Positions 13,401 to 42,626 of a stretch of DNA of 44,408 nt are shown one piece after another. Position 1 is the first letter of the stretch. Each line of letters starts with the position of its first letter. The notes under the pieces are model-generated. The model was not told the DNA's origin. It ran no database searches and was given only the letters and a program-made list of their open reading frames with translations. This DNA comes from Candidatus Undinarchaeales archaeon (GTDB lineage: Archaea > SpSt-1190 > JASMDC01): assembly GCA_030753015.1 (NCBI GenBank), contig JASMDC010000028.1, positions 1-44,408 on the forward strand, given 5' to 3'. The position numbers and the translations under genes are program-made.

Positions 13401-16400
13401 GAGTATCTTCTCAGTCGTGGTCTCCGTGCTCGGTGTGAACCGGACGAACACCTCTATGAACTCGCCAGGATAGACCGCGGTATCGGATACGGAGATCTCG
13501 AACAGACCTTCACCTGTATCGATACCCGTCCCATTACCCAGACCGATGGAGAACGGTTCGTCCACGGTGTCAACATAGACCGCGTTATCCAATATGAGGA
13601 TCTCGGTCTCACGGGTCGAGTTGAACACCTCGCATTCCTCCAGGTCGACTTCACAATGCTCACGCCCGGACCAGTAGGAGAGCTCGAGGTCGTACAAGCG
13701 GAATGCCGAGAGGTCCAGCGGGAACTCGTGCATGACGACCTTACGCTTGCCGGCTCCACCCGTGGGTTCGAGCAACGCCGCCGGCAGTACCGCACCCTCG
13801 CCGCCAGGGCATGTGTATTCCGTCGTCTCCGGATCGACGCCCATCAAGAGCGCGGTGTCGATCATCTGGGTCGACGTTGGCGAGGCGAGATATACCGCAC
13901 TGCTGGCGTTGAAGGCCAAGAATGCTTCTTCATCAAAGGCCCAGGCCGTAGGGGAGTACCGCTCCAAGAGCTTCTTGGTACCATCCGCGAGCTTCACGAA
14001 CGCTTCGATGTCATCAGCCACCGATCTGATGCTGAAGATCTCTATCTCGGAGAGACCCGACTGGGCCTCCGAGACCGTCTCGCCCGTGGCGAGCACTATA
14101 TCGCCATCCTCGTCTACGACCTGATCTGTGTTGGTCGCGAACTGGCCATTGATAACATCCGTGACGACAACAACTGCCACGTACCGGGCGGTGATGGGCT
14201 GGTCGAACACGACAAGGGTTTCTTCAGCGTCAAGCTCCCAGATGTACTCATCGACGAGCTCGTACACCTCAGTGTCGTTGGAGACGTGTATCTCGAAGTT
14301 ACCAGGCTTCATGATGACATCGTCCGCTAGCTTGAAGGCGTAGAGACGCAGGCCGGAGATGCCCAAGGGCTCTTCGAGGTCAACCTGGATCCAGTTCCCA
14401 TTATCGGCCACGAGCGAGCGCCAGCCGTTTCCGACCTCCATGATTACACCATCGGTGAGCTGTGTGATGTCGTCAGGTATATCCTCGTATGTAGGCTTGA
14501 GCGGATGGTAGCCGCATGCCACCGACTGGCCGCTCACGATAGCACGCGAGTCCACATCGATCTTGCGGTTCGCGAACCTGTTCTTGGCGATGTTATCGTC
14601 CGACAGGAGCGATGCTACGATTTCGAGCCGCGGGAAGAGCGCATTGTCCATGATGTTGACGAAGCCAAGCTCTACGGGGACCTGGCCTAGGCCATAGAAG
14701 ACACCGTCCTCTTCCACGAGCTCGGGATATGCGTTCTGCCCGTCTGCATCGGCCTCGGAAAGGAAGCCGATGGATTGGCGCACCGGCTCGAGCCCTGCCC
14801 CGTCAGTACATGCTTCCGTTCCGCTATAATCCGTGAGCTTCACACCGAGAGCGACCTCCTTACCGTATCTTGAGATGAAGTCGCGGTAGGGATTGATACC
14901 GGCAAGGATGTTCTTGAATCCGAGCTCGATGCTCGCCTCGGTCTCATACCAGGCGACACCATCGACAGTGGTCTCGGTCTTGCCGTTGGAAGCACCGAAG
15001 GCACATACCATCACGGAATGCATTACACGCTCTTCGCCCAGAAGTGCGTTGACATCATCAGGTGTGATGGTCAGACGGTTCCAGTCCTTCTCGGTCTCGC
15101 ATCCGTCACAGGGCAGAGCAGGCGTCAAGGGCACCATGCCTACACCGGCCGGGAGGGCGTCTGCGGCAAAGAACCTCTCAGGGTGGGCCTCCTTCGTGAG
15201 GAGCCCACCACATGCTGCCGGATCGGCGTCAGTGCAGTACAGTACGAACGCCTGGGCTTCTGCTACACCCTGGTCATGTTCAGCACTGCTCTCCCAACGG
15301 AACTCCATGTCGCTTATGGACAGTCGGCCCTTCGAGGCCGCTGACCACACGACATCCAGGCTGCATGTCTTGCCATCTTCCGAAACTGAGCAACCCGAGC
15401 AGGTGCATGTCTCGACGATGCCCGTCAGTGCCTCAGCGATCGCATCATCCTCCACAGCCTTTGCACCCACGAGGTCCTCGGCAGGAATGTCCGCGCCGTC
15501 ATTGCCGAAGTCGGCCGATAGGCTCTTGATAGCAGAGACTATGCCCGTGTACGTATGCGTGTGGACGTCGGATGACGAGTCAGCGGGAGTGTGGACGTGA
15601 CACCCGTCCTCTGAGGACGTGTACTCCCTACCAGCGATGGTGACCGTGTGCGTATGACAGCCACCGGCCGCGTTCCCGTCGGCGATCTCGTGGGAGTGGC
15701 ATGACTCACCAGTCGGGTACAATGTACCTCCAACAGTGATATCATGTCCGTGGCATGCCTCATCGGTAACGTCCCCCGCCACGATATGGCCGTGGGAGCC
15801 GTCCTCCTCCGTCGCCAGGTCCTCAGTGAGGGTTCCCTCCAGATCGAAGCTCGCACGGGTGACCTCTACACCGATAGGGAGGACGAGCTTCGTTGTGATC
15901 GTCCCTCCATCCTCGGGGAAGTCGATGACACGGGGTGTCTGCCCGTCCAGGGCCGTCGCCATCCCGTGGAGCCACCGTTTAGTGGAGGTGGCAAAATCAT
16001 ACGTGAACTGCATATCGACCGCACCCTTATCGAGCTCGAAGTATAGGCAGTGTGCCTCCTCGTCATTCTGCTGCTCTTTGGAATAGGTCTTGCTCTCCAA
16101 GACGAGCACGTCCTCTTCAGCGAAGTCCAGGCGGCGCGTCTCCTCGAGGTTAGTAAGGTCCGAGCACACATCAAGGCGGGGGACCGTGAACACGTTCTCG
16201 CCCGTGATGGTGACACCTTCTGAACAGTTGGTAGCAGGAACGAACGCGAAGTCGATCATGTTCTCACCGAACTGGGTCTCATTGGTCAGTATACGGTGGT
16301 AGGTGAAGTTGTCCCAGGAGTACTCGATACGGAGCGTGGCACTCTTGCTCCCCTCGTCGTACATGGCACAGTAGGACTCGATCTGGGGATAGCCATCGGG

Positions 16401-17402: not shown

Positions 17403-17548
17403 GTTCGAATCCTCCATTATCGCAAGGGAGACATCAAGTCGCAAGAAAAGAGGCGTCCGCGCATATCATCGACCCAAGGAGATACACCTTTACCCCTCCT
17501 GTCCTGTGTAGATAACACTCTCCCCTTCTGAAAGCGGTAGGCTGCAAC

Positions 17549-19332: not shown

Positions 19333-21879
19333 TTAACGTGAGCGTTCCGGCGCGGGCCTCGGCCATGACACTAGCTTCCCATCACCTCGGCCTGCCAGCA
19401 CACGGCACGGAGTGAGCGCAACACTGTACATTGACGAACCTGTTGTGCTATTAAGGAGCAGGCTGCCGGTCGTCCGATCCCATACGAGAACGGTGCCATC
19501 GAGCCCTGTGGAAGCCAGGACCTCATGGTCACCATCAAGGGCCGTCACGGCCGAGGTATGACCTGAGATGTTACGGACGAACCTTATAGTACCGTCCCCT
19601 ACGCGCCAGACCTTGATCTTCCAGTCCATCGAACCGGTGTGGACGTCACGTCCATCGGACCAGGTCGAGAGCACGGAGCCTGTGTGGGCGGCCAGTACCC
19701 TGTCGGGTTTGAAAGTGGTACCCGACCAGGCGAGCACCCTGGCATTGAATCCACCTATAACGGCCATGCCTCTGGCGATGGCTACCTCTGTAAGGGGACC
19801 CTGACCGGGCACGAGAGCATTTAGACGCTTTCTGCTCCCCGTATTCCAGATCTTGACGGTACCATCATGAGATGATGATACCAGTGAGGTCCCGTTCCAT
19901 GTGAGCCCGAATACGATCTCTCGGTGTGCCGGCCAGGTCCCAAAGGCAGCCAAGTCCGTCAGCGACCACACGGATATGGAACCGTCAAAGGAGCCAGCGA
20001 AGAGAGAAGTATCATTGGCGGCAAGAACAAAGACCGTGCCACCGGGATTCGTAGCAGAAGCGAATTGAGAAAGATCACTATGAGCGAGAGCACGGACCGT
20101 CCCGTCCGCGGACCCCGTGTACACGACATCTCCCACGACAAGGAGCGCGGTGACATCGTCGTCATGGAGGTCAATTACCGCATGAGTGGGACATATATCA
20201 GTGTCTGCGCTCGTCAAGGTACCTATTCCTCGGCGGCACGAGGGCTGTACCAATACGGGCAGGTCAGCGCATGCGCGCTCCTCTGCAGTGCCTTTTCGCC
20301 ACCCGATTCCTGCTCCCACAGCTGCCGCACACATCCGCTCGTCCGCCACGCGTGCGGTGCACATACCAAAGGCTTCGGACGGGGCCAGATCCTCCTGCCA
20401 ACGCCATCTTAAAGCCTCGAGGGCACCAGCTATACAGGCGACGCGATCGGATCCGTTCTTTGTCTTATCACAAGGTAAATCCGATAATGCGACGGGTCCT
20501 CGTTCCCACGCTTCACCCCATCCGGCACCCCATGAGCAATACCGTTCGGAAACCTGTCCTTGGAGCAAAGCGCTGCAGTGCTGCGCTAGGCGGTCCCGAT
20601 CGTCGCGGTATCGCCAACCGAGGAACCATCCGGTCTCCTCCCGACACACGGGTTTGTATACCATGTCAAGGTCGGCGCCCCACCGTCCGGGCGACACGAG
20701 AGAGACGCTCGCCAGACCACCAGGCACGAGGAGCGCCAGGGCCACGATTGCAGCAGGCACCCGCGTACCGCGCTCCCAGAGCCGGGACACGCTGATAGCC
20801 GTCGCGGCCATGAGGGGGACGTACAAGGGCAGGAGATAGCGGGCAGCCCTGAGCCCCTTATCATCGATGACGAACGGGCCCATGGTATAAGCCAGCACGT
20901 GGAGAAGGGGTACGAGCACCAGCACACGGCCCAGCGCACCTTCCTCATTCCGGAATACACGTAGCGCCAAGAGACCGTACCCGGCCGCGAGCGACATGGT
21001 GTAGAACCACGACATTACCGTCCAGCCGGTAGATGGGACGGGGATGAATCCTCGCCGAGGCAGGTGCTGGAAATCGAATGATTGTCTGAGGTCCTGTGAA
21101 ACGAGCCTCATGAGCTTCCCGGTCGGCCCAGGCGACGAACTACCTGGTGGCGGTGAGTTCCCTCCGAGGATGTCGAATCCTTCATTATCGTTGGAGGCAT
21201 TGTAGACGATGCCCGGAAGGAATCCTATGATGATACCGGTCGTTATGACGATGAACACTACCGGTCTACGGTCGCGAATAGCTACAAGAATGAGGCATGC
21301 GAGCGCGAGTGGACCGGTATCATAGCTCACCCATCCCGCGAACCCGATGGCCAATCCCAGGAGGAGATAGGAGCGTGACGACCGTGTCGGACCTGCGATC
21401 AACGGGAGTGCTGCGGCGATGACAACGAGGTCGAAGGCCCTGGCCAGGAAGTGGTCACCGATCGTCATGAGGGTGCGGAAAACGTAGTGAGGTGGTGCGA
21501 GCACCAGCATCGCTGCCATGAGCGCTGCTGCACGCCGGCCTCCATATCGGTCAACGAGCCATGTCGCCAGAACGAGGATGAAGCATGAGACGAAGAGAGA
21601 AAGTGACTTAACCGTGACCGCATGTGCGCCGAAGAGCGCCACCAACGGTCTAAGGGCGTGTATAGTGAGCACGCCACCTCCTTTGTACGGCCATACATAA
21701 TCGTACGCGGACAGGTCAGGGCGCGAGAGCATCTCGAGAGCGACGGTACCATAGATGCACTCGTCCTCCGGGGCCGAGATGAAGGGCGAGGCCGTGTACA
21801 GCACGAGAGCGCGGAGGACGAGGTTCGCCACAAGGGCGATGAGGATAATACGACCCAGTGACGGCTTGTGGTCTGCCAT
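19333..21879 (-). CDS. GT-C fold (ArnT/PMT-like) multi-pass glycosyltransferase fused to Cys repeats and a C-terminal WD40 beta-propeller
   Basis: An acidic loop motif after TM1 (APEDECIY), many TM helices, and RYLLPLY. WD40 motifs: YTGSADGTVR, GSFDGSISVW, SSSHDGTVKIWN, TGSMDWKIKVW, GHTSAVTAL..STGLDGTVLVWD. Confidence 0.82.
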   Translation of the reverse strand: MADHKPSLGRIILIALVANLVLRALVLYTASPFISAPEDECIYGTVALEMLSRPDLSAYDYVWPYKGGGVLTIHALRPLVALFGAHAVTVKSLSLFVSCFILVLATWLVDRYGGRRAAALMAAMLVLAPPHYVFRTLMTIGDHFLARAFDLVVIAAALPLIAGPTRSSRSYLLLGLAIGFAGWVSYDTGPLALACLILVAIRDRRPVVFIVITTGIIIGFLPGIVYNASNDNEGFDILGGNSPPPGSSSPGPTGKLMRLVSQDLRQSFDFQHLPRRGFIPVPSTGWTVMSWFYTMSLAAGYGLLALRVFRNEEGALGRVLVLVPLLHVLAYTMGPFVIDDKGLRAARYLLPLYVPLMAATAISVSRLWERGTRVPAAIVALALLVPGGLASVSLVSPGRWGADLDMVYKPVCREETGWFLGWRYRDDRDRLAQHCSALLQGQVSERYCSWGAGWGEAWERGPVALSDLPCDKTKNGSDRVACIAGALEALRWRWQEDLAPSEAFGMCTARVADERMCAAAVGAGIGWRKGTAEERACADLPVLVQPSCRRGIGTLTSADTDICPTHAVIDLHDDDVTALLVVGDVVYTGSADGTVRALAHSDLSQFASATNPGGTVFVLAANDTSLFAGSFDGSISVWSLTDLAAFGTWPAHREIVFGLTWNGTSLVSSSHDGTVKIWNTGSRKRLNALVPGQGPLTEVAIARGMAVIGGFNARVLAWSGTTFKPDRVLAAHTGSVLSTWSDGRDVHTGSMDWKIKVWRVGDGTIRFVRNISGHTSAVTALDGDHEVLASTGLDGTVLVWDRTTGSLLLNSTTGSSMYSVALTPCRVLAGRGDGKLVSWPRPAPERSR

Positions 21880-21881
21880 GC

Positions 21882-22898
21882 TCACGGCACCCCCCGCAGT
21901 GCGTCCAGGACCTTTCCACCAAGGTCGGCGACAGTTCCTGAATTAAGACCGAGGAGGAGGCTCGCCTCGATGGGACCATAAAGGTAGCACCCGCCACAAG
22001 CAGACCTGTCCGTGAGCGTCATGAAAGCGTCGACCGAGGCGTCCCCGGGAGGGCCCTTGGGGTGGACCGCCTCGTCCAGCTTGGCGCAACAGGTGGCGAT
22101 CCCCCCGTCTGGTGTGATGTTACAGAATATGCGACCTGCCAGACACGATACCGAATGAGGGACTCGGGGCCACGTGTCCCTGAGCAACCGGAGATAGGGG
22201 CGGGACGAGAGCACGGGACGCCCACGCGCTTTCTCTTCCAGGAGGAACGTCGCAGCTGCTCGGACCTGGTCTCGTGACGGTACCAAGTCCACCGCCTCCG
22301 ATGGTGAGACATGGTCATGCTCACCCACTGGCTGGACAAGGAGCTGGGCACCAGCACTCTGAGCGACATCGAGGAACCCTCTGATGTCACTTGCGGTCTC
22401 CCGGGAAAGCACTCCCACAACGATCCGGCGGGGACCGCCTTTGGGAAGAGCGTCGAGCCCCTCCATGACGCGGTCGAATGTACCATCGCCCCGCGTGAGG
22501 TCGCAGACCTCGCGTGGTCCGTCCAAGCTGATGAGAAGAGTATCCAAATTTAGTATCCATGATGTGTCGTCTAATCCTGAGAGGAGCGTACCATTAGTGA
22601 CGACGCTTACAACGAGACCAAGGCGTTGGCCCTCGTCCACGAGCTGGCCGATGTCGGACCTGAGCAGGGGCTCGCCCCCATTAAAGCTCCACGAGACGCA
22701 TCCGGCCTTGGCGAAGGCCGTCATGAGGGCGATCACATCCTCAGTGCTCATCTCGTTGCCACCAGGACCGCGTCTGCCACAGTATCGGCATGTAAGGTTG
22801 CACCGATAAGTAAGGTGGCAGCTCACCTTCAGAGGGATGCGGGCACCCGCGACCGCACGGAGCCCACTTGTGGCAGCGCGCGCTAACCTACTCGTCAT
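21882..22898 (-). CDS. Radical SAM protein with SPASM/twitch-like C-terminus
   Basis: LTYRCNLTCRYC (CxxxCxxC), GGEPLLR, VTNGTLL and ISLDG...D..RG motifs. C-terminal CLAG...ITPDG...CC...CGGC. Confidence 0.9.
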   Translation of the reverse strand: MTSRLARAATSGLRAVAGARIPLKVSCHLTYRCNLTCRYCGRRGPGGNEMSTEDVIALMTAFAKAGCVSWSFNGGEPLLRSDIGQLVDEGQRLGLVVSVVTNGTLLSGLDDTSWILNLDTLLISLDGPREVCDLTRGDGTFDRVMEGLDALPKGGPRRIVVGVLSRETASDIRGFLDVAQSAGAQLLVQPVGEHDHVSPSEAVDLVPSRDQVRAAATFLLEEKARGRPVLSSRPYLRLLRDTWPRVPHSVSCLAGRIFCNITPDGGIATCCAKLDEAVHPKGPPGDASVDAFMTLTDRSACGGCYLYGPIEASLLLGLNSGTVADLGGKVLDALRGVP

Positions 22899-32228: not shown

Positions 32229-35200
32229 ATGAAAAGGCAGCGGCAGGTCATCCAATTCGGTATCCTCGCCCTTCTCGTGCTCAGCCTTGGTACCGGTGCT
32301 TCAGTGAGGTTAGCCAACTGGGAGGAGGCCGAGTACTTACAGAACGGCGAATGGGCGTTGACCATGCCGGTCCAGGACTACCGTGTTACAGGGATCTCGG
32401 CTAAAGCACGGTTCAAGGGGAACCTGGACGGAATAAACGACACCACAGCCGACTGCGCAGTGCAGGAGGAAAAGGTCATCATCACTACCAACGGTGATGA
32501 GATCGGTCGGTTCGGCGATTATGGGGATACGTTGACGTGCGTGGCCAACGAGGTACCCATAAGCTGCTGCCCTATGTGCGATGCTTGGCGAAAGGAAGAG
32601 ACGTTCGACATTCCCCTGCCCGCATGCCGGTTCGCTGAGGACAAGATCTTGCTGGGATTTGCCCTCACACCTCGGGACGAGTGGGCGAGCGCCTGCCCGA
32701 CCGACGCCTGCGTGGGGACGTTCGACTGTCGGACGGGCTCCTTCAAGGTCCGGCTGTTCGTAGAGGTCACCTACGAGGAAATCTCCACCGAAGTGTGCGA
32801 CGGTATCGACAACGACTGTAACGGCGATATCGACGATGGTGAGATATGCACTGGCGGCTTCGAATGTGTCGAAGGTGAGTGCTCGACCACCGAATGCGCC
32901 ACAGGTCGCTTCCTGTGCGATGGACGGTGCGAACTCGCTCCCGGCAAGTGCTGTGACGGTATCTGGTTCGTCGGGGGTGGATGTTGTGGCGATGAGGACT
33001 GTACCGGAGTTCAATACTGCGACGACGACCACCTCTGCAAGGAACCTGAGTGTACCGATACCGCACACTGCCCCGGAAATTTCCGATGCACCGATCATCT
33101 GTGCTCCGATACCGAGTGTAGGACGGGCCACACCCGATGTGGAGCGGTGTGCGATCAACTCCCTGGCGTTTGCTGTGAGAACGTGTGGAACGCCGGTGGT
33201 GACTGCTGCCATGACGGCGGTTGTGCCGGTGAGAACATATGTGGTGCGGACCATCGCTGCACACAGCCGGAGTGCACCGCTACGAGCCCGTGTGCCAGTA
33301 ACTTCAGGTGCCTCGATGGTCGCTGCTCGAGCACGGAGTGCAGTACCGACCACGCCCTATGCGGTTTCACCTGTGGCCCTATACCGGGGGTCTGCTGTGA
33401 TAATACGTGGTTCACGGATGGCGACTGCTGCGATGACGATAATTGCCGCACCGACCAGTACTGCGGGGCCGACCATGTGTGCAGCGCGTACACCTGCTCG
33501 GTCTCCACCCCCTGCCCCGGTGTGCTAAGGTGCGTCGATGGCATCTGTATAGACCCTGCTAGGAACTTCGCACCGAACATCATGGTGGACAGCGGTGTTT
33601 CGGGGAAACAGCTCCATTCCGCCCTCGTCGGTCTCCGTGGAGGCGGTCTGCTCTCCATGTGGCAGGACGCCCGCACGAGCGATTACCACGTCCGCTCCTC
33701 GCAGGCATCACCTCCCGGCTACGAGTGGTCAACTTCGGTCCAGGTCGACTCTATCTCCTTCGGGGACCAGGGCCCGCCTTCAGTGGTGACTGGTCCCAGT
33801 GATCTCATGTTCGCTGCGTGGACTGGTAGGGACGGGAGCATACGGGCCGCGTACGTCGCACGTTCGACCGATAATGGAGCATCATGGGGGCCGTCAAGGG
33901 TCATCTCTGGGGACCTCGACAGCCCGAAGGACGCCGCCATCGCCCTCGGTGGAGGCCAGCTCACGGCCGTGTTCTCCGCTGTCGAATCAGGCTACCGTTC
34001 AGTGTACGCCGTGACCTCGAACAATTGGGGTGCGAGCTGGTCGAGCCCTTTCCTGATCGCGTCCGGTGAGTCCGCTCGTGTCGGGATCCCATCCGTGGCG
34101 ATCGATGCCGATATGGTCGCTGTCGTGGTGTGGGAGGAGGGTTCCTCGCTCTCGGAGGCCATCTATACAGCACGGTCCACCGATGGCGGCAGATCGTGGA
34201 GCGAACGGTCGCGCGTGGACCCCGCACCGAGCCCTTGGCAGATCCGTCCTACGCTCCTGGCCGCAAGGGACGGGGGATTCCACCTTGCCTGGGACGAGGA
34301 GTATGACATCTACACGAGCCAGAGCAATGACGCGGGCCTGACCTGGAGTACCAAGGTCCTCGTGTTCGATGCCTCGCACGGGTGGCGCGCCGAACCTATG
34401 CTCGCCGTGGCGGGCAACGGCAACGCCTATGTGGTCTGGGACAGCTATTACGACATCTATACCGCTTACATACCGAAGGGGGGTACGAAGTGGACTGAAC
34501 CTGCACGTGTGGATGATTCGCCCGAGGGCACACAGCAGCGTCGACCGGCCTTGGCCGTTGACTCGGAGGGCGTCGTCCATGTGGCATGGGAGGACAATCG
34601 GAACGGTGAGTACGCTGTCCACTACAGTCTATCGACTCCGTGCAAGCCCGGATTCACGTTCTGTGAGGCCCGGTGCATCCCCTCGACCGAGGGGAGATGC
34701 TGCGGGGGGATATGGCGCGTCGGTGCCGAGTGCTGCTGGCATGAGGAATGCGAGAGCGGTCATGCGTGCGACCGGTATTCGTGCTCCAGCACCCTGTGCG
34801 CACCAGGTTTCGTTTCCTGCGAGGGTGCTTGCCTCAGGCTTCCCGGTGCGTGCTGTGGAGGGGTCTGGAAGGGAAGTGCCGAGTGCTGCACTGACGACGA
34901 CTGCACCAGGGGCGGCACATGCGACGCCTCGCTCCAGTGCATCGGAGGTGAACCTGTTGGACCTACTCCCATCCCTACAGCGGATCCTTCGGCATCACCG
35001 TCCGCCACACCGTCCACGACCACCCCACCGGGCGGTTCGCCAGGGCCCACGGCTACCACCTCACCCTCGAGCACGCCCACGTCCACTCCGGACCCTTCCG
35101 CGTCCCCCACGGTGACGACATCCCCCACACCCACACCGGGCGCAACCACCACGCCCGGCCCCACAGCTGCACCAACACCCACTCCGACACCTGCCTCCGA

Positions 35201-38200
35201 GAACGTTCGTCAATGGCTGCTCTCCCTTTGGGAGGATATCTCCCGTGCTGAGCAGAACGGTGAGATCACTTCTGAGATGGCGGCCCGTCTCCGCAGGAGC
35301 CTTGAGCAGGCCTTCAGCCTCATGGTTGGGGGCGATGTTGGAGGTGCTGTTGACATCGCCGACACCATCTTCCGTGACATCGCACGAGCACGGATCGAGG
35401 CGCTCATCCAGCGAGTGGAAGCTCTGGGACTGGCGGGACAGATCGATGAGGAGACCCTCGCCAAGCTCCTCAAACGGCTCCGCGAGGCGCTACAGGCCAT
35501 CGACGAGACCGGTGTGTCCAGCGGGACGGACGTCCTCCTCGCTCGGTCCAACGCTGAAGACCTTCTAAAGACCGTAGAACTCCTGGTCACCGAGGTGGTG
35601 GACGCCGAACAGGCGTCGGATACGCAGGGGCCCACTCCCACAGCCACCCGACCCATGACAACAAAGGATTGGGTCCTCGCGCTCTGGATGGAAATCGGGC
35701 GTGCCGAGGGTGCCGGTGAGATCACCTCGGATGTGGCCCAGCGGCTCCGCCATCGCCTCCAAGAGGCGCTCGACCTCATCGACTCCGGTCGTGATGACGA
35801 GGCGCTAATGATCGCCGACACGATCTCACGTGATGTGGCCCGAGCTCGCGTGGAAGCGCTCATCCAGCGCTTGGAAGCTCTCGGTAGGGAGGGGCGTATC
35901 GACCGAGCGGTCCTCGCCGAACTACTCGAACGGCTGATGGAGACGCTCCGTGCTATCGACGAGGGTGATGTCGTGACGGGAACTGCCGACCTGGAACAGG
36001 TCATCGCCCGGCAAGCGGCCACCATCGAAGCCATCGAACTGATCCTCGCCGAGGTGGACGAGGCCGAGCACACGGCAGCCCCCGCCCCGACACCGCCGCT
36101 CGCGGACGGTACGAGCCTTGCTCCAGAGACCGTGGTGTCAGCGGTACAGGAATGGATCGAGACCCTTAGCGAGGACGTCCAGACCGCCGAGGAGAACGGA
36201 ATCATCACGCCCGAAAAGGCGATGGAGATACACCAGGGATTGAGCAGAGCTCGTGCGCTATTGGAACAAGGACGTGTGAATGCTGCCCTTGAGGAAGTGG
36301 GACGGGTCGCCCCCGCTGTGGCCCGTGCACGGCTCGAAGCGCTCATCCAGCGAGTAGAAGCGTTGGGCCGGGACGGTCTTCTCGACGCAGAGACGGTCGC
36401 CGAGCTACTGGGACGATTACGCAATGCGCTCCAGGACCTTGAAGAGGATGAATCCGGAACTGAGACTCTCCCCGTCTTCGAGCGTATGGAGCGTCTGCTC
36501 GAGAGCGTAAACGCGCTCACGAACGAGGTAGAGCAAGCAGCGGGAGATGAGACTCCCGTCACCCCTTCGACAGGCCCGGTCCCCACGATGGTCCCGAGCC
36601 TCGTCCCCACGCTCATACCGACCACGGTCCCCACGGTGTCACCTACAATCCTTCCCGATGGTAGCGTCACACTCCTGCCCACTCTTGTCGCCACGATGGT
36701 GCCGTCGATGGTCCCGACCATGGTGCCTACTACCGTGCCTGGCCCCGGACCAACGGCGAGCGCAATGAATCCCAATGGGACGAACGTGTCAGGAGGACCC
36801 GGTCCCAGTGGTGTGCTCGTTACCGAGGGTATCGATCTGGATCAGGCGTCCATCCCGTCAAGTATCCCTGCCGATCCTGTGGCAGCGGCCATCCATGACC
36901 TCGCCGAAGAGATGGGATGTGCTGCGGTCTGTGCGGGCAGACCGGAGGGGTGTGACGATGCGTGCGAGGACCTGCTCGATCTAGAGAGAAAGATCGCCTC
37001 ACCCCTGTTCCAGGAGCGTCTCCTCGTCCAGATGGCCGTGAGCAATACGCCGCCACCCGGATTGGAGCGTCATCTCCAGAGCGCCTGGCGCCGCCTGGGC
37101 GAAGGGGACGTGACCGGTGTGCAGGATACTGTCCAGCGTGTGCAGGGTATCATCAAGGAGCGCCTTGCCATCGATGTGGCGGTGAACACCGTGTCCAAGT
37201 CGTCGTTCACTCCACAGATGGAGCCTGAAGAGGTGGCCACGCCCTCGGTGCTCGAGTTGTTCGATATCGAAAGCTCCCTCGGAGAATCCGCCGAAAAACT
37301 CGTCGACGGCGTTGTCGCGGTATCGAAGGCCGTGCGCGAGCGGATGGGTGTGGTGATCACAGGTCATGTCATGGAGGTCGCACTCCAGACGGCCGAGGGG
37401 ACAAGCGAGCCAAAGATCGCGACCGTGGTCACGCTCTCCGTGGAGAACACCGGCGCCGACGACGAGGAGGACTTCTGCATCCTCCAGCTCATCCCAAAAG
37501 CATTGGCATCGTCCGTTACCGATGTCACCTTCAGACAGGACGTCAGGGTGGTGGTCAATGATCCGGTCGTGCTCTGGAGCGTCGACCGTCTCAAGAGCGG
37601 TAGTAAGGTCGACCTCTCGTTCTCGGTCCAGAAGCAGGTCTCACAGGATGACGTCGAAGCATCGCGTATCACCTTCCTCAAGCTCCCCGCTTCCCATTGC
37701 AGGGAACTGTCAACCAAACCGGGAGGGGGGAGCGGATGGGGCACGACCACGGCCGGTGGTGCCCTCTCGACCATCAAGTCGCTCATCCCATGGATCGCGA
37801 TGCTGATGGTCCTCTCCCTCATCGGTGCTGCTGTCAGGCAGCGGATCCGACGTGGTCCCGGCACACTCGCCCTATCCATCGCACGGCAAGCGGGCTACAC
37901 CTCGGTCACGGCCACGGCACGGAACACAGGGCACACGCCGATGCTCGAAGTGGCCATCGAGTTCGAGCTCCCCTGCGAGCTCGCTCCTCCTCCGGATGTC
38001 TCCCTCCACGAAGCAGTGGGCACCATCCCTGCCAGTGGTTACCACATGAGCATGCTCTACATCAGCCCTCGCACACCCGCACGCTCGACGGTCGGGGCCA
38101 GTATCACCTACCGTCGCGGGGGTATACAAACTACCGAGCGAGCCCCTCCGGTGTCCGTGGCCAGCGTCCTCCCCCTGGTCAGCCCCCTGAAAATGGACGA

Positions 38201-38555
38201 GGAGGCCTTCGAGGAGGCCACGTCAGGGCTCGTTGAGACCTCCCGCTCCCTCTCGATCAAAGGCGGGATAGGGTCCGTGCTCGAAAGCGTCAAACAGGTC
38301 TGCTCTCCGCTCGCTCAGGCCTTTGCGCATAGAAAGCCCGGTGGACGTGTAGACGAAGGCTACATCGGCCGTGAGGACGCGACGGGCGAGACCGTGGCAG
38401 TCAAGGTCCACGGGAAACGAGGCGTTCTGGGCGGCAGCCTCACCATCACATGCTTTGCTGGGACGAAGGGCATCGCGGACGCCCTTGCCGATGAGCTGGT
38501 GGACCTGGTGACGGGCAAGGAATCGCCCTCGTACTATGGTACGCGATACACCTGA
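32229..38555 (+). CDS. Giant single-pass receptor-like surface protein (2108 aa): Cys repeats, Asp-box (BNR/sialidase-like) propeller, PT linkers, three helical repeats, TM helix, ~240-aa cytoplasmic domain
   Basis: Signal peptide MKRQRQVIQFGILALLVLSLGTGA and a CDGIDNDCNGDIDDG motif. 74-aa Cys repeats. Asp boxes RSTDNGASW, TSNNWGASW, RSTDGGRSW, QSNDAGLTW. TM LIPWIAMLMVLSLIGAAV followed by RQRIRR. Confidence 0.92.
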   Translation: MKRQRQVIQFGILALLVLSLGTGASVRLANWEEAEYLQNGEWALTMPVQDYRVTGISAKARFKGNLDGINDTTADCAVQEEKVIITTNGDEIGRFGDYGDTLTCVANEVPISCCPMCDAWRKEETFDIPLPACRFAEDKILLGFALTPRDEWASACPTDACVGTFDCRTGSFKVRLFVEVTYEEISTEVCDGIDNDCNGDIDDGEICTGGFECVEGECSTTECATGRFLCDGRCELAPGKCCDGIWFVGGGCCGDEDCTGVQYCDDDHLCKEPECTDTAHCPGNFRCTDHLCSDTECRTGHTRCGAVCDQLPGVCCENVWNAGGDCCHDGGCAGENICGADHRCTQPECTATSPCASNFRCLDGRCSSTECSTDHALCGFTCGPIPGVCCDNTWFTDGDCCDDDNCRTDQYCGADHVCSAYTCSVSTPCPGVLRCVDGICIDPARNFAPNIMVDSGVSGKQLHSALVGLRGGGLLSMWQDARTSDYHVRSSQASPPGYEWSTSVQVDSISFGDQGPPSVVTGPSDLMFAAWTGRDGSIRAAYVARSTDNGASWGPSRVISGDLDSPKDAAIALGGGQLTAVFSAVESGYRSVYAVTSNNWGASWSSPFLIASGESARVGIPSVAIDADMVAVVVWEEGSSLSEAIYTARSTDGGRSWSERSRVDPAPSPWQIRPTLLAARDGGFHLAWDEEYDIYTSQSNDAGLTWSTKVLVFDASHGWRAEPMLAVAGNGNAYVVWDSYYDIYTAYIPKGGTKWTEPARVDDSPEGTQQRRPALAVDSEGVVHVAWEDNRNGEYAVHYSLSTPCKPGFTFCEARCIPSTEGRCCGGIWRVGAECCWHEECESGHACDRYSCSSTLCAPGFVSCEGACLRLPGACCGGVWKGSAECCTDDDCTRGGTCDASLQCIGGEPVGPTPIPTADPSASPSATPSTTTPPGGSPGPTATTSPSSTPTSTPDPSASPTVTTSPTPTPGATTTPGPTAAPTPTPTPASENVRQWLLSLWEDISRAEQNGEITSEMAARLRRSLEQAFSLMVGGDVGGAVDIADTIFRDIARARIEALIQRVEALGLAGQIDEETLAKLLKRLREALQAIDETGVSSGTDVLLARSNAEDLLKTVELLVTEVVDAEQASDTQGPTPTATRPMTTKDWVLALWMEIGRAEGAGEITSDVAQRLRHRLQEALDLIDSGRDDEALMIADTISRDVARARVEALIQRLEALGREGRIDRAVLAELLERLMETLRAIDEGDVVTGTADLEQVIARQAATIEAIELILAEVDEAEHTAAPAPTPPLADGTSLAPETVVSAVQEWIETLSEDVQTAEENGIITPEKAMEIHQGLSRARALLEQGRVNAALEEVGRVAPAVARARLEALIQRVEALGRDGLLDAETVAELLGRLRNALQDLEEDESGTETLPVFERMERLLESVNALTNEVEQAAGDETPVTPSTGPVPTMVPSLVPTLIPTTVPTVSPTILPDGSVTLLPTLVATMVPSMVPTMVPTTVPGPGPTASAMNPNGTNVSGGPGPSGVLVTEGIDLDQASIPSSIPADPVAAAIHDLAEEMGCAAVCAGRPEGCDDACEDLLDLERKIASPLFQERLLVQMAVSNTPPPGLERHLQSAWRRLGEGDVTGVQDTVQRVQGIIKERLAIDVAVNTVSKSSFTPQMEPEEVATPSVLELFDIESSLGESAEKLVDGVVAVSKAVRERMGVVITGHVMEVALQTAEGTSEPKIATVVTLSVENTGADDEEDFCILQLIPKALASSVTDVTFRQDVRVVVNDPVVLWSVDRLKSGSKVDLSFSVQKQVSQDDVEASRITFLKLPASHCRELSTKPGGGSGWGTTTAGGALSTIKSLIPWIAMLMVLSLIGAAVRQRIRRGPGTLALSIARQAGYTSVTATARNTGHTPMLEVAIEFELPCELAPPPDVSLHEAVGTIPASGYHMSMLYISPRTPARSTVGASITYRRGGIQTTERAPPVSVASVLPLVSPLKMDEEAFEEATSGLVETSRSLSIKGGIGSVLESVKQVCSPLAQAFAHRKPGGRVDEGYIGREDATGETVAVKVHGKRGVLGGSLTITCFAGTKGIADALADELVDLVTGKESPSYYGTRYT
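32847..33548 (+). repeat. Three tandem 222-bp (74-aa, 14-Cys) coding repeats plus a partial fourth
   Basis: Units begin CTGGFEC, CPGNFRC (33069) and CASNFRC (33291), and share PG.CC...W...G.CC....C. Related units recur at ~34640-34945. Confidence 0.88.
35199..36540 (+). repeat. Three ~150-160-aa helical coding repeats
   Basis: ARARIEALIQRVEALG, ARARVEALIQRLEALG and ARARLEALIQRVEALG, each preceded by W...L...I/V..AE..G.IT and separated by PT linkers. Confidence 0.9.
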
Positions 38556-38589
38556 TGTTCTCGAGCGGCATCCCGCCGCCGCTACAGCG

Positions 38590-38598
38590 CATAAATAG
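38590..38598 (+). promoter_or_regulatory. Putative TATA box of the Rieske-domain surface protein gene
   Basis: CATAAATAG lies ~22-30 bp upstream of GTG 38619 / ATG 38628. Confidence 0.5.
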
Positions 38599-38627
38599 TT
38601 TGGGCGTCTATAGTTGGCGTGGGTAGT

Positions 38628-41600
38628 ATGAAGTATCGTGAGGGCGAGGTTCTAGTGGCAGCGCTCCTTACTGCCCTCCTGATGCTCACGACACCCACGC
38701 TCGCCGATGACACATGTATATTCATCGTCAACGAGGCCGACGTGCCCGCGGGAACGACCCACACATTCAAACACGGGGCCATAGATGCCATCCTGGTCAA
38801 CTTCGGTGGGGAGTACAGGGCCTACTACAACTCCTGCACTCATGCGGGTTCTCCCATCGACATCCAAGGTGACGTCCTCAATTGCCCGCTGCACGGATCT
38901 CAGTTCGCACCCGCGGACGGTACCGTCGTCACCGGTCCTGCAGCGACTCCTCTCCACTCTATCCCTGTAACAACAAAGGACGGTGGTATCTACACCGGCA
39001 CCTGCACTCAGGGACCGAGCTGCGGCGACGGTACGTGCTCGGAGAGTGAGGACTGCCGGGATGACGACGCGATCTGTACGGGAGGCCTTTACTGCGGCAA
39101 CGGGTGCATCCAACGGCCCAACGGCATGGCCTGCGACTCCGACGAGGCCTGCGCCTCCGGCAACTGTGCCATCGATTGGGAGAACGCCGAGGGGACATGC
39201 GCTCCAGAAGGCAACTGTGTCCACGGGGACGGGATCGATTTCATCTCCCTAGTCACCGTCTCTGGGGACCGCTACTGCAACGATACCCTGTGGCAGTCCC
39301 GTAAGGTCGACGGTGACCTGTGCGACCCAGCTCACCCGATAATGTGCTCTGAACGACGGTGCGTTGGGACAATCGACGGTTCCAGTAATCTCTGCTGTGT
39401 CTCGGGATGCGCTCTTGAGGACAGTTGCGTACCATCCGGTACGCGGGAAGGATCAATGTACTGTGACGATATGTGGTGGGAACAGTTGGCCGACGGTGCT
39501 GCTTGCACCACTTCGGCAGCCTGCGCTAACGCCACCTGTGTGGAGGACGTGAAAGGAGGACCGTCCATATGCTGCGCCCGCGAGTGCGTCTCTGGTGGCG
39601 TATGCTATGGAAATGAGACCCAGCTCGATGGCATGTACTGCGCCGGCGAGTGGGAAGTGCTGCGCCATGATGGTGCATCCTGTACCGCGGACTGGGAGTG
39701 TACCGCTGGCCTCTGCGCCGAGGACAAGCTCACTGGGAATGGATTGTGCTGCCCTCGTGACTGCGTCTACAACGGCATCTGCTCCCCGACCTTTGGCCAG
39801 GCCGTCGGACTGTTCTGCAACGTCACCGGCTCATGGGAGCAGAAGCGGGAGGAGGGATCACCGTGTCACCACTACTTCCAGTGTCTGGGTGATACATGCG
39901 CCTCATCGGACGAAGGGAGCTTATGTTGCGCGTCACCAGGTTGCACCGATGCCGATAAGTGCATGCCCGTGGGGAGCCAGATCGAGGATCGGTACTGCGA
40001 GAGCGGCACATGGCGGTACTTTACAGCGTCCGAGTGTGAAAAGGACTACGAGTGCAAGAGCAACCAGTGCGTGGACGACGTCGATGGTGACGGACGCCAC
40101 TGCTGCGCGACACAGTGCGTTTTCAACGCCACCTGTTACCCGCTGTACGGCCGGGCGGCGGACCACTGGTGCAACGACACGGCATGGATCCCGCAGCTCG
40201 CCCACGGTGCGCCATGCGATCAGCACGGTGAATGCTTCTCGTCATGGTGCGCGCAGGACAAGAACGGAACCGGCCTGTGCGGGCTCCAGGGATCGTGTCT
40301 TCACTCGGGCGAATTCCACCCGTCCGGGGAGAGCGCCCTGCTCGGGGAGGAGAGCGAGTACTGCCTGGAAGGAGTATGGCACGACTGCCTTGACGACGAT
40401 GAATGTGGGACGGGCCGCTGGTGTGACGAGAACCTCACCTGTCGCGATCCCTTCTGCGGGAACCAGCGGTGCGAGGCAGGGGAGTGTGCGGACGGGTGCG
40501 CTGATTGCTCGCTCACCGTCTGCATCGGTGACGGCACCTGCTCTACTGCCATCGGGGAGAGCTGCGCGAGCTCCGGTGACTGCGTCTGTCCCGGTGGGAT
40601 GCATTGCAGCGTCTCGGATCCCCTGCGGGATACAATCGGCTGCGTCCGTGTATCGTGCGGGGACGGTGTCTGTAACAAGACGGCCGGGGAATGCCTTTCA
40701 GGGTGTGCTGTCGACTGCAACTCAACGACATGCATCGGTGACGGCGCCTGCAGCCCCGCAGTTGGCGAGAACTGCTCGACCTCTGCCGACTGCCTCTGTC
40801 CCAGCGGCTTGGTCTGCCGATCAGGAGAGGCTGGCGTTGACTGGATGGGATGCTACAATCCCGCCTGCGGGAACAATGTTTGCGATATCGACCGTGACGA
40901 GTGCGATGCGGGATGCCCTGACTGCAGTCCCGAGACATGCGCCGGTGACAGCACATGCAGCCCGCGTATCGGCGAGGACTGCAGCACGACCGAGGAGTGC
41001 GCATGCACACCACCGCTCAGATGCCAGGCGGGAGCGGCCGATGCTGATCTGCACGGGTGCGCACCACCCCCGTGTGGCGATGGGACGTGTGACGCGAGCG
41101 AGACGTGCGACCTTTGTCCGGATGATTGCGGGAACTGCTTCCTCATACAGCCCCAGGCGGTGACTCTCTCGGAAGAGGAGGGAGAGGGTACCGAGGTCCT
41201 CACCATATCGAGCCTCAGCAAGTCCGCCTATTTCGCCGCCGTGATTGAGGTCAAACATCCATCTACTGTCGAGGTGTTACCCTCCCGCCTCCTGGTCCAG
41301 CCAGGCATGGAGAACAGCGTCATGCTCACGCTCAAGACCAGCACCGCGGTGAGCGGGAAGGGTGAGATAGTCCTCGCGAAGGAGAGCTCCGGCGAGGTAC
41401 TGGCGAAGGTGTCACTGACCGTTTCCGTGGAGGACACTGGCCCCTCCCCTATCAGCCTCCCACAGCCACGTATCCCGATCTCGGGCGATACGGGAGCAAC
41501 GGTCACCTTCTACTTCCCAGTGCTCAATGAAGGTGAAGGCGATGCCAGGGTTGCAATGACACCTCTCAAGGCAGGAACGGCCGCCTCATGGGTCATCCTC

Positions 41601-42626
41601 GACGTTCGTGAGCTCTCCATCCCCGCCGGTGTCCAGCGCATGGTGCTCGGTCGCATTTCCATCCCCCCCGACGCACCCGGTGGCGCTCATGAGGTGGCCA
41701 TCGACGTGACGGGCGGTGCCCAGATGGTGACCGCGTACCTGGTGATCACCGTGAGCAGCACTGCGATCGTCTGTGGTGACGGTGCATGTGGGACCGGTGA
41801 GGATTGCTCGATATGTCCACAGGACTGCCCCTGTGAGAAGCGTCTAGTACTGGAGCTCCCGGCAAATGCCACTGTAGATACGAGCCTACCGGGACCGGCT
41901 AGGGCCACTGTGACGGTCAGGAACCCGATGGACAGATGGGCCAACTGCACGCTCGTCGCAGGACGGAACGATACGACCATCACGCCCCTCAACCTTACTC
42001 TTGCCCCGGGGAACTCCTCGCAGGTGGTCGTGATCGTCGATATCCCCGACACGACCGGCGAGATCCTCGTTCCACTGGCCGTGATGATGGAAGGAGATGT
42101 CGTCGCCTCGGCGAACCTCACGGTCAGGGTGTCGGACGCAGTCCCCCGGGAGGTGCTCACGGCTCGTGTGGCCACCATATCCATGAAGGTGAAGGATGCG
42201 GCGAGCGCTCTGGAGAGCGCACGACACGCCGAGACAGTCACCAGGGAAAGACTCGACGCTCTGGACGGGGAGGCAGATGCGATCAGGGAGGTGCTCGATG
42301 ACGTGCGGGCTCACCTCGATGCTGGGCGCCAGTCCGATGCCGAGTACGCCCTCGAACGGGCGGGACGTGACATGGACAAGCTCCATGCCCGGCTCGATAC
42401 GAACGGTATCCTGGCTGCATGGGCTCGCCCAAGCTCCACACCGACACCGACGCCCGAGAAAGGCGATGGCTGGAGCATCTCATGGGGCGGTGTCCTCATC
42501 GTGGGGATGCTGGCAGCACTGATCCTCGTCCCCATGGCAGCGCTCCTGATCTCCCGGCGGCGTCCCCCGAAGCCTGCTGCTCCCACGGGCTCCTATTACG
42601 GCCAGTACTCTACGGTCAGGTACTAG
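38628..42626 (+). CDS. Membrane-anchored Cys-rich surface protein with N-terminal Rieske [2Fe-2S] domain (~1332 aa)
   Basis: Signal peptide MKYREGEVLVAALLTALLMLTTPTLA. Rieske boxes NSCTHAG...CPLHGSQF..DG.V..GPA..PL. Long Cys arrays including CGDG.C repeats, then Ig-like domains, a helical stalk and TM WGGVLIVGMLAALILVPMAALLI followed by SRRRP. Confidence 0.9.
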   Translation: MKYREGEVLVAALLTALLMLTTPTLADDTCIFIVNEADVPAGTTHTFKHGAIDAILVNFGGEYRAYYNSCTHAGSPIDIQGDVLNCPLHGSQFAPADGTVVTGPAATPLHSIPVTTKDGGIYTGTCTQGPSCGDGTCSESEDCRDDDAICTGGLYCGNGCIQRPNGMACDSDEACASGNCAIDWENAEGTCAPEGNCVHGDGIDFISLVTVSGDRYCNDTLWQSRKVDGDLCDPAHPIMCSERRCVGTIDGSSNLCCVSGCALEDSCVPSGTREGSMYCDDMWWEQLADGAACTTSAACANATCVEDVKGGPSICCARECVSGGVCYGNETQLDGMYCAGEWEVLRHDGASCTADWECTAGLCAEDKLTGNGLCCPRDCVYNGICSPTFGQAVGLFCNVTGSWEQKREEGSPCHHYFQCLGDTCASSDEGSLCCASPGCTDADKCMPVGSQIEDRYCESGTWRYFTASECEKDYECKSNQCVDDVDGDGRHCCATQCVFNATCYPLYGRAADHWCNDTAWIPQLAHGAPCDQHGECFSSWCAQDKNGTGLCGLQGSCLHSGEFHPSGESALLGEESEYCLEGVWHDCLDDDECGTGRWCDENLTCRDPFCGNQRCEAGECADGCADCSLTVCIGDGTCSTAIGESCASSGDCVCPGGMHCSVSDPLRDTIGCVRVSCGDGVCNKTAGECLSGCAVDCNSTTCIGDGACSPAVGENCSTSADCLCPSGLVCRSGEAGVDWMGCYNPACGNNVCDIDRDECDAGCPDCSPETCAGDSTCSPRIGEDCSTTEECACTPPLRCQAGAADADLHGCAPPPCGDGTCDASETCDLCPDDCGNCFLIQPQAVTLSEEEGEGTEVLTISSLSKSAYFAAVIEVKHPSTVEVLPSRLLVQPGMENSVMLTLKTSTAVSGKGEIVLAKESSGEVLAKVSLTVSVEDTGPSPISLPQPRIPISGDTGATVTFYFPVLNEGEGDARVAMTPLKAGTAASWVILDVRELSIPAGVQRMVLGRISIPPDAPGGAHEVAIDVTGGAQMVTAYLVITVSSTAIVCGDGACGTGEDCSICPQDCPCEKRLVLELPANATVDTSLPGPARATVTVRNPMDRWANCTLVAGRNDTTITPLNLTLAPGNSSQVVVIVDIPDTTGEILVPLAVMMEGDVVASANLTVRVSDAVPREVLTARVATISMKVKDAASALESARHAETVTRERLDALDGEADAIREVLDDVRAHLDAGRQSDAEYALERAGRDMDKLHARLDTNGILAAWARPSSTPTPTPEKGDGWSISWGGVLIVGMLAALILVPMAALLISRRRPPKPAAPTGSYYGQYSTVRY

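Follow-up and report, generated by a model that had tools for sequence, protein, structure and literature searches.

Proteins that carry an iron-sulfur (Fe-S) cluster are normally exported by twin-arginine translocation (Tat), because the cluster is inserted in the cytoplasm beforehand. Here we describe a Rieske domain that probably leaves the cell by another route. It is encoded at the 5' end of a giant surface-protein gene on a contig of a Candidatus Undinarchaeales archaeon (JASMDC010000028.1; contig C38 of the metagenome-derived genome G000). The entire contig of 44,408 bp was analyzed and is called the window. This exported Rieske domain is real, it is unusual, and it has a wider occurrence than an earlier note on this DNA had seen; its chemistry can be proposed from the sequence, and its place on this protein is recent.

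Several described systems come close to this one. In the excerpts of two sources used here (PMC13673990, PMC10172866), the Rieske subunits of bc1 and b6f complexes and AioB have a loop disulfide (CxHxGC...CxCH), a twin-arginine (RR) signal that often remains as an uncleaved anchor, and a cytochrome b or molybdoenzyme as partner. Rieske proteins are classed as Tat substrates with uncleaved or internal signals in an excerpt of the first of these (PMC13673990). The cyanobacterial protein PetC3 appears in parts of two papers (PMC10172866, PMC12341915) as a periplasm-facing Rieske lipoprotein with a potential of +135 mV and an unresolved function, and the protein of PDB entry 8hn2 is reported there to be closest to PetC3. 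Two further papers (PMC3781833, PMC3914529) describe CcdA-ResA/CcsX, which keeps Sec-exported apocytochrome c reduced, and CcdA-Etrx, with surface thioredoxin lipoproteins. The part of a review on archaeal surfaces that we draw on (PMC6098224) covers lipobox signals in euryarchaea and does not mention Rieske lipoproteins. Our searches of open-access text turned up neither an account of Sec-type Rieske proteins nor one of a pairing between Rieske proteins and CcdA.

The Rieske domain and the surface protein that carries it

The surface-protein open reading frame (ORF) occupies 38619..42626 (+). It encodes 1335 amino acids (aa) from a GTG codon or 1332 aa from ATG 38628, and the database entry for the same protein (P0005) is annotated with a later start that gives 1323 aa. 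The features around the Rieske domain are as follows.

38591..38597 (+): A/T-rich ATAAATA element, a candidate archaeal TATA box about 31-37 nt 5' of ATG 38628, read from the sequence
38628..38705 (+): signal peptide MKYREGEVLVAALLTALLMLTTPTLA with a TLA/DD cleavage-type site, without twin-arginine and without lipobox
38706..38999 (+): Rieske-fold domain, aa 30-127 (Pfam, phmmer against PDB, AlphaFold2, Foldseek)
38835..38894 (+): ligand loops C73-T-H75 and C89-P-L-H92 (codons 38835-38837, 38841-38843, 38883-38885 and 38892-38894)
38934-38939 (+): proline loop G106-P107, 3' of the ligand loops

In archaeal promoters the TATA box stands at such a distance from the start, and because of the spacing of the ATAAATA element the ATG at 38628, with which the earlier note had worked, may be favoured over the GTG at 38619.

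Residues 30-127 are a genuine Rieske domain, far beyond what chance would give. The earlier note had read a complete Rieske ligand set in this place, and the set is indeed there, with C73-T-H75 separated by 13 residues from C89-P-L-H92. All four ligands and the proline-loop residues G106 and P107 are present and the domain has no lesion. When the first 134 aa were used as query, the Pfam Rieske hidden Markov model proposed by that note (PF00355) matched residues 35-116 with an E-value of 1.4e-13 and 51 bits against a cut-off of 20.3; the genome-wide scan gave 51.6 bits for the same protein. PF00355 was not listed when the complete, compositionally biased 1335-aa protein was scanned. The best phmmer match among PDB sequences was 8hn2 (E 2.1e-11), followed by Rieske ferredoxins of the TodB, CarAc and BphF type; 5cxm was matched at E 0.0014. 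NCBIfam returned only sub-threshold matches, which were to Rieske ferredoxins and bc1/b6f subunits (e.g. 33 bits against 275). With the 134-aa query, the HcaC equivalog scored 35.7 bits (cut-off 113) and AndAb 21.6 bits (cut-off 150).

Structure prediction gave the same answer. An AlphaFold2 model of aa 28-134, computed from a 56-row alignment, reached a predicted local distance difference test score (pLDDT) of 92.1 and a predicted template modelling score (pTM) of 0.83. The closest PDB structure in Foldseek was 8hn2_A, the soluble Rieske domain from Chlorobaculum tepidum, with a template modelling (TM) score of 0.82 and a root-mean-square deviation of 1.6 Å; CarAc, TodB and BphA3 followed at about 0.81, and 218 PDB chains had an E-value of 0.001 or less. 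The ligand pairs of the window protein are 13 residues apart, whereas the aligned solved structures have 15-16 (TodB 16). Its loops read CTHAGS and CPLH, and the extra disulfide cysteines of bc1/b6f proteins are absent, just as the earlier note had stated.

The remaining features of the gene are these.

38565..39149 (+): lineage-specific 5' cassette of 585 nt, comprising intergenic DNA, signal peptide, Rieske domain and the first Cys-rich stretch (blastn)
39000..41153 (+): Cys-rich stalk, aa 128-845, with 105 Cys in repeated modules and 11 of the 17 sequons; no Pfam family
41154..42158 (+): three beta-sandwich (Ig/ASH-like) modules, aa 846-1180 (all-beta AlphaFold2 model, Foldseek)
aa 1051-1073: short CGDG-type Cys knot between the second and third beta module
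42144..42404 (+): helix-prone region rich in charged residues (about aa 1176-1262), with a Pro/Thr linker behind it at aa 1271-1279, seen in the sequence
42480..42626 (+): C-terminal transmembrane anchor (aa 1288-1311; hydrophobicity peak 2.83 at aa 1293), RRR-led tail of 24 aa, and stop

The stalk matches the Cys repeats that had been noticed behind the Rieske domain: it is 718 aa long and holds 105 of the 115 cysteines of the protein. Cysteine makes up 8.6% of the window protein, compared with 2.2% in the 2363 stop-to-stop frames of at least 300 aa in the genome, and the 17 N-x-S/T sequons amount to 1.27 per 100 aa, compared with 0.30 in those long frames. The Ig-like domains of the earlier note found moderate support. 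The model of aa 846-1180 is all-beta and its Foldseek matches are tandem Ig/ASH/PapD-like arrays (E 1e-14, TM 0.2-0.3), but the Ig-like Pfam matches are not significant (E 0.055 and 0.29); the pLDDT of 65 makes this model a lead only, and the same holds for the Atlas feature scores of 0.80-0.81 for the region. The only Pfam match of the helix-prone stretch, MscS_porin, is not significant either (E 0.45).

The position of the Rieske domain relative to the membrane was read from a hydrophobicity scan with 19-residue windows. Only aa 10-12 and 1284-1296 gave strongly hydrophobic windows; a marginal one, at aa 1034, falls within a predicted beta strand. The second group, followed by RRR, agrees with the C-terminal anchor that had been predicted. 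By the positive-inside rule, a positive cluster after a membrane helix marks the cytoplasmic tail. Since no strongly hydrophobic segment lies between aa 26 and 1283, the Rieske domain must share the compartment of the stalk, at the end farthest from the anchor, which is where the earlier note had put it. The predicted topology shows the Rieske domain in an extracellular position. We also considered an uncleaved anchor of the reverse orientation, which would hold the Rieske domain in the cytoplasm. This was rejected because it would place the whole Cys-rich and sequon-rich body inside the cell.

The earlier note had also raised the possibility that the junction is chimeric, and the assemblies speak against this. 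Of the words sampled from 38400-39600, at least 98% are present in each of eleven sequencing runs from six studies, all labelled as metagenomes from marine sites or seawater. This interval is crossed in one piece by a contig of run X1 (6.9 kb) and by one of run X2 (2.3 kb), and run X10 covers it with three contigs that overlap, each time with 0 differences; any of the three may be a source run of the window. Several repositories have entries for the full-length Rieske form, on 12 contigs in all, and synteny holds on either side of the cassette. The genome itself measures 3.85 Mb in 117 contigs, with an estimated completeness of 98.9% and an estimated contamination of 5%. A 161-nt contig from an RNA library (run X20) lies at 38807-38967, a weak hint of transcription, as RNA libraries can contain DNA; missing RNA coverage outside this interval carries no weight.

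The edges of the cassette were found by comparing window positions 37500-39600 by blastn with the corresponding locus (L105) of G001, a sister species of the same genus with a genome of 3.6 Mb. The flanks are 84.7% identical at 37506-38564, the end of the upstream gene, and 85.7% identical at 39150-39598. In the place of the cassette G001 has 340 unrelated nucleotides, which encode a different signal peptide and a short Cys-rich start; its only Rieske protein is a two-domain lipoprotein. This comparison of sequences shows the Rieske fusion as a recent, lineage-specific 5' cassette swap, a point beyond the reach of the earlier note. Because of this swap, the Rieske tip is an accessory function of the surface protein rather than one of its conserved parts. 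The closest paralog of the Rieske domain in the genome is only 50% identical, too distant for the tip to have been copied freshly from a resident gene.

The 90%-identity cluster of the protein has 15 members from several repositories. Those that bear the Rieske domain (P0005, P0155, P0157 and P0167) are identical over the N-terminal 150 residues compared, except for the called start, and for this reason selection on the tip is not measurable. P0156, P0158, P0159 (889 aa) and P0164 start within the protein and are uninformative; none has the Rieske motif. Word-based searches for the same architecture with aa 1-140 ('near') returned only the protein itself among 733 candidates, and the 'longer' search returned 2 of 1606, the protein itself and one unrelated NAD-binding/Rieske fusion.

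Signal peptides, relatives and gene neighbours

The earlier note had described the signal peptide as lacking a twin-arginine, and no RR was found in aa 1-29. The short n-region, MKYREGE, has basic residues and a net charge near zero; it precedes an h-region of 15 residues and small residues at -3/-1. The best 12-residue window has a mean Kyte-Doolittle hydrophobicity of 2.83. Cleavage after A29 would give a mature N-terminus of the DDTCIFIVNEADVPAGTTHTFK type.

The genome encodes one TatC and two TatA proteins, and three of its proteins have canonical Tat signals: a molybdopterin oxidoreductase of 1157 aa (MKQIPRRKFLTLSLTG..., motif RRKFL), a metallophosphoesterase (...NRRDFFGLAAAS..., motif RRDFF) and a nitroreductase-family protein (...GRRDLIGLS..., motif RRDLI). 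Their h-regions have values of 1.72, 1.93 and 2.37, compared with 2.83 in the window protein. In other archaea, membrane Rieske frames (L096, L098 and L103) carry the motifs RRHFL, RRNFL and RRDFI, and a fourth, weaker Rieske-like frame in L096 carries RRNFI. Judged by these signals, Tat is available and recognisable in this genome and the window protein is unlike a Tat substrate. Export by Sec, with the chain threaded unfolded, is most likely; it is suggested over folded export by Tat because the signal is hydrophobic and RR-less and the stalk is a contiguous stretch of 718 aa with 105 Cys.

The window protein is not alone in this. Pfam Rieske matches in the genome amount to six domains in four proteins; all four proteins have a signal peptide without RR, and three have a lipobox. 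Signal classes, here and below, come from a crude regular-expression and hydrophobicity rule, not from a trained predictor. The first lipoprotein (P0002; G000:C31:3967-5730, locus L088) has the lipobox LSGC, a Pro/Thr linker, a Rieske domain and a thioredoxin-like domain with WCPTC. The second (P0003; G000:C61:1972-4920, locus L089) has the lipobox LAGC and three tandem, intact Rieske domains with Pro/Thr linkers. In the third (P0004; G000:C34:10041-11411, locus L007), again with LAGC, the Rieske domain has lost both His and the proline loop and kept both Cys. Its fusion partner is an FGE-sulfatase (SUMF1-like) domain, and a relative of 449 aa (P0030) has the same layout. In the alignment the paralog domains are 38-48% identical to that of the window protein.

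A profile of the five intact Rieske domains of this genome was searched against 1.84e9 representative proteins and gave 8448 matches with E ≤ 1e-3, 450 with E ≤ 1e-10 and 7 with E ≤ 1e-30. We classed 153 proteins by their signals, namely the 150 listed matches plus the four Rieske proteins of the genome, less P0005. A signal was missing in 85, a class that includes incomplete entries (for P0012, the complete frame found in L010 does show a lipobox); 41 had a hydrophobic N-terminus without RR (28 with lipobox) and 27 had RR (18 with lipobox). Polytopic fusions with DoxD/DoxX or RnfD-like domains are found among the 13 RR-less proteins that have no lipobox; the RR-less lipobox subset is the clean one. 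Among the best-ranked 30 matches, 16 were RR-less with lipobox, 2 RR-less without it, 4 had RR and lipobox, and 8 had no signal (some of them incomplete). The median h-region hydrophobicity was 2.91 in the RR-less lipobox group (n=28) versus 2.03 (n=18) and 2.18 (n=9) in the RR groups (Mann-Whitney p 4.7e-6, for relatives that are not independent). RR-less lipobox relatives can have n-regions as short as MK or MR.

Conservation indicates that the site is under selection. In the RR-less proteins both Cys are kept in 43 of 43 domains and each His in 39, the proline-loop Gly in 38 and the Pro in 41; all four ligands are kept in 29 of 29 domains of RR proteins and in 87 of 88 of the proteins without signal. 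The motif type CxHxxGP-x13-CxWH also occurs behind canonical RR signals (P0076, P0078, P0141), so a 13-residue loop is compatible with folded export. Some members are named 'Rieske (2Fe-2S) protein' in metagenome-assembled genomes of Candidatus Altiarchaeota, and others are annotated by JGI as 'nitrite reductase/ring-hydroxylating ferredoxin subunit'. Four RR-less lipobox proteins (P0018, P0020, P0026 and P0039) combine two PF03640 'secreted repeat' units with a C-terminal Rieske domain, which in P0039 has both His ligands replaced (CPEDGC...CPCD). These fusions fit an extracytoplasmic life of the Rieske lipoproteins.

A scan of metagenomes gave mostly a bacterial architecture, in which a multi-span N-terminal membrane domain is followed by Rieske. 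It added one RR-less lipobox member (L109); two identical frames that begin MERAEFL (L175 and L186) are doubtful. None of the 120 candidates in a word search for short relatives with the 134-aa N-terminus reached E ≤ 0.001. Of the 150 listed profile matches, P0067 (1744 aa) alone is very long; it was examined as a similar giant Rieske protein and rejected, as it is an fn3 array and not Rieske. A tree of the domain (160 rows, 100 columns) is poorly resolved, with 24 of its 157 branches well supported, and the signal classes change at least 38 times on it. Together the signals and matches show, as far as sequences can, that the window domain is one member of a family of archaeal Rieske (lipo)proteins exported without RR, which extends what the earlier note had seen.

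Two of the paralogs stand beside genes for thiol-electron transporters. On C31 the Rieske-thioredoxin gene is followed by one for a 237-aa DsbD_TM/CcdA protein (E 4.4e-19). On C61 the gene with three Rieske domains is followed by one for a 581-aa protein, the N-terminal third of which matches DsbD_2 (E 1.2e-15) and the remainder of which has no Pfam match. The pairing of Rieske and DsbD_2 recurs in G001 and in a record from Altiarchaeota (L009), where the gene order is DJ-1/PfpI, Rieske lipoprotein, DsbD_2 and ArsP_1 permease. There are five DsbD_TM homologs in our genome. They are unlikely to serve the maturation of cytochrome c, because Cytochrom_C_asm (PF01578) was not found in this genome, which is 98.9% complete.

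Two other neighbourhoods were recorded. The Rieske-thioredoxin gene on C31 has close to it the genes for a PMT_2-like membrane protein and for a radical-SAM protein of the B12-binding kind, and neighbours of these kinds are also present in the window. In an uncultured archaeon (L010:3154-5796) an RR-less Rieske lipoprotein is encoded between a thioredoxin-reductase-like flavoprotein (upstream) and a desulfoferrodoxin/superoxide reductase (downstream), a neighbourhood that hints at an oxidative-stress context.

Proposed loading of the Rieske site and rival explanations

The explanation that we favour, and to which we give an even chance, is that the window protein displays a Sec-exported Rieske redox or metal module of the low-potential type that is loaded after export. 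The protein would be a giant surface protein with a type-I anchor, and the Rieske domain with its 2Cys-2His site would form the membrane-distal, N-terminal tip. With its RR-less, cleavable signal the chain would be threaded unfolded through Sec. After export, a relay from CcdA to thioredoxin may keep the ligand cysteines reduced, by analogy with CcdA-ResA and apocytochrome c, and the site could then be loaded with a [2Fe-2S] cluster outside the cell. The product would be a one-electron module for extracellular redox sensing or electron transfer. A low potential is proposed because the stabilising disulfide is absent. Loading with a cluster is favoured because the entire three-loop site is conserved and because sister proteins with the same motif use Tat. 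The broader proposition is that some archaea mature Rieske proteins outside the cytoplasm, by way of a Sec-exported apoprotein (often a lipoprotein), a relay from CcdA/DsbD to thioredoxin and assembly of the [2Fe-2S] cluster at the surface. This we regard as doubtful.

A number of observations weigh against extracellular loading of a functional redox tip. We know of no route for the assembly of Fe-S clusters outside the cytoplasm, and an exposed low-potential cluster would be at risk if the marine or seawater source water is oxic. CcdA is adjacent to Rieske in only 2 of the 159 loci fetched; these two are the nearest archaeal relatives, and the others are mostly distant bacterial Rieske proteins. 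No CcdA was found nearby in L010, a close archaeal relative, and the ORFs of the window include no CcdA or thioredoxin gene. Both His are lost and the Cys pair is kept in 4 of the 43 RR-less domains (those of P0004, P0030, P0039 and P0062), a pattern that would fit a thiol role at least as well as a cluster. The ortholog in G001 is 84% identical over aa 124-1335 and has no match to the Rieske part. Likewise, 8 of the 15 cluster members (P0160-P0166 and P0168; 1249-1256 aa, at least three variants) have a signal and a short Cys-rich start and no Rieske domain. The fusion may therefore be young and of little consequence. Finally, the Rieske domain of the window falls in no supported clade of the domain tree, and we draw no origin or donor from it.

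Some of these points lead directly to other explanations. The Rieske fold might hold no [2Fe-2S] cluster at all, and bind a single metal ion (Fe, Zn or Cu), or its pair of neighbouring cysteines might serve as a redox-active dithiol/disulfide fed by CcdA, so that the tip would be metal-binding, thiol-redox active or adhesive. Export of the Sec type predicts just such an unfolded apo-protein outside the cell. The partners of the paralogs are thiol-disulfide machinery (DsbD_TM/DsbD_2 and the fused WCPTC thioredoxin-like domain), the genes near relatives belong to thiol and oxidative-stress chemistry (DJ-1/PfpI, the thioredoxin-reductase-like flavoprotein and desulfoferrodoxin), and the four His-less domains retain both Cys. 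However, His in 39 of 43 domains and a conserved proline loop exceed the needs of a Cys pair alone, Tat signals, as expected of domains loaded with a cofactor, stand before this motif in close relatives, and the modelled fold cannot be told apart from that of Rieske proteins that bear a cluster. We think this explanation possible, and on balance unlikely. Less probable still, we believe, is a neutral graft, in which recombination put the start of an exported Rieske gene onto a variable surface-protein gene and the tip has no specific role. The clean boundaries of the cassette between flanks of about 85% identity would be expected from it, as would the eight Rieske-free cluster members, the identity of the four Rieske-bearing ones over the 150 residues compared, and the failure of the word-based searches to find another protein of this architecture. 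Yet the ligands, the proline loop and the high-confidence fold are all intact, the 50% identity to the nearest paralog excludes a fresh resident copy, the variant is present in runs of six studies, and the RNA-library contig gives its weak hint of transcription.

The other two explanations concern the route and the DNA itself. The cluster could be loaded in the cytoplasm and the domain exported by RR-independent Tat targeting, by hitch-hiking with a Tat partner or by some other route. The genome has the Tat machinery, reviews describe, in the excerpts used, the export of Rieske proteins as Tat-dependent (PMC13673990), and hitch-hiking is described in part of one source (PMC10924467) and, for arsenite oxidase, in part of another (PMC13673990). 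But the n-region of the window protein has no basic pair, its h-region (2.83) lies far above those of the genome's Tat signals (1.72-2.37), and folding in the cytoplasm before export would be required of a chain of about 1300 aa with 105 stalk Cys and 17 sequons; the RR-less lipobox relatives with n-regions of MK or MR also speak against this route, and we consider it very improbable. We give hardly any credence to an artefact, that is, a chimeric assembly or a wrong start, with the Rieske domain being a separate cytoplasmic protein or retained by an uncleaved anchor. The later start called for P0005 and the origin of the 44-kb contig in a metagenome-derived genome with 5% estimated contamination would allow for it. 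Against it stand the contigs of two runs that cross the junction of signal, Rieske and stalk without differences and the three overlapping contigs of a third (possibly all source runs), the record of the same protein on 12 contigs in several repositories, the synteny with the sister species on either side of the cassette, and a single open frame with no stop and with no second strongly hydrophobic segment before aa 1284.

The finding of an RR-less Rieske family with intact ligands beside thiol-electron transporters would mean one of two things, an unrecognised extracellular route for Fe-S loading or a Rieske site repurposed as a metal or thiol module. Both alternatives can be tested directly with the 98-residue domain. 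If true, extracellular maturation would break the rule that exported Fe-S proteins are loaded inside and travel by Tat, and it would place one-electron Fe-S redox modules on archaeal surface proteins, in this case at the tip of a giant stalk. The case also illustrates how giant surface proteins of archaea have their tips swapped as cassettes between sister species.

Genomic setting and comparison with known systems

Around the gene, the window encodes further giant surface proteins along with radical-SAM enzymes, glycosyltransferases and one glycosyltransferase of the PMT_2 type. The gene just upstream (32229-38555, +) encodes a 2108-aa protein with similar Cys-rich repeats, a BNR_2 sialidase-like propeller, three long helical FIMAH-like repeats with Pro/Thr linkers, and a membrane helix at about aa 1800 with a tail of about 290 aa after it. 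An ORF of 3327 aa (7461-17444, -) has bacterial TSP3 calcium-binding repeats and Binary_toxB-type calcium-binding and F5/8 type C (discoidin) domains, and looks like another giant surface or adhesion protein. Between 21882 and 27290 (-) lies a run of envelope-modification genes: a radical-SAM enzyme, a family-2 glycosyltransferase, a B12-binding radical-SAM enzyme and a protein with an LPG_synthase transmembrane domain. An 850-aa WD40 protein is encoded at 19333-21885.

Cys-rich proteins are common in this genome: of its stop-to-stop frames of at least 300 aa, 65 contain 6% Cys or more, many of them longer than 1000 aa. VKOR was not found in it, and we draw no conclusion on how the disulfides of the stalk form. 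Ribosomal protein L19e, which is present, and bacterial L20, which was not found, assign the organism to the Archaea; the small-subunit rRNA (RF01959) was not found in the genome. The genomes of this genus are 3.6-3.85 Mb in size, and each of the 15 others sampled from its class has 0.6-1.2 Mb. The genus would thus be a lineage with large genomes within a class of very small (DPANN-like) genomes, or else a misplaced or mixed bin (5% contamination).

The Rieske domain of the window resembles the bc1/b6f Rieske subunit and AioB in its fold, its CxH...CxxH ligands, its proline loop and its extracytoplasmic site. Unlike these, it has neither the disulfide cysteines nor RR, and the scan of 16 window ORFs revealed no gene for a cytochrome b or a molybdoenzyme. 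The Rieske ferredoxins TodB, CarAc and BphA3/BphF are its best matches after 8hn2, have about the same length of 100 residues and likewise lack the disulfide cysteines. They are, however, cytoplasmic proteins without signal that are encoded with an oxygenase and a reductase, whereas the window protein has a signal, an anchor and a stalk; the window contains no oxygenase genes.

With CcdA-ResA/CcsX and CcdA-Etrx the family shares a DsbD/CcdA gene beside one for an exported thioredoxin-like or metal-site protein that is exported unfolded. The proposed client differs: in place of a CxxCH haem motif or a methionine sulfoxide reductase, it would be a 2Cys-2His Rieske site. In addition, no cytochrome c assembly protein was found in G000, and the relay is here only proposed.

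The closest analogue of the window Rieske domain is the cyanobacterial PetC3 (PDB 5cxm). PetC3 is reportedly targeted by Tat, whereas the window protein and its three paralogs lack RR; the window protein also has no lipobox (its site reads PTLA/DD) and carries its Rieske domain at the tip of an anchored protein of 1335 aa. In both cases a small, minimal Rieske domain would be held at the outer face of the cytoplasmic membrane, outside a bc complex and with a potential that is low for a Rieske protein, and the three paralogs in this genome (P0002-P0004) carry a lipobox, as PetC3 does.

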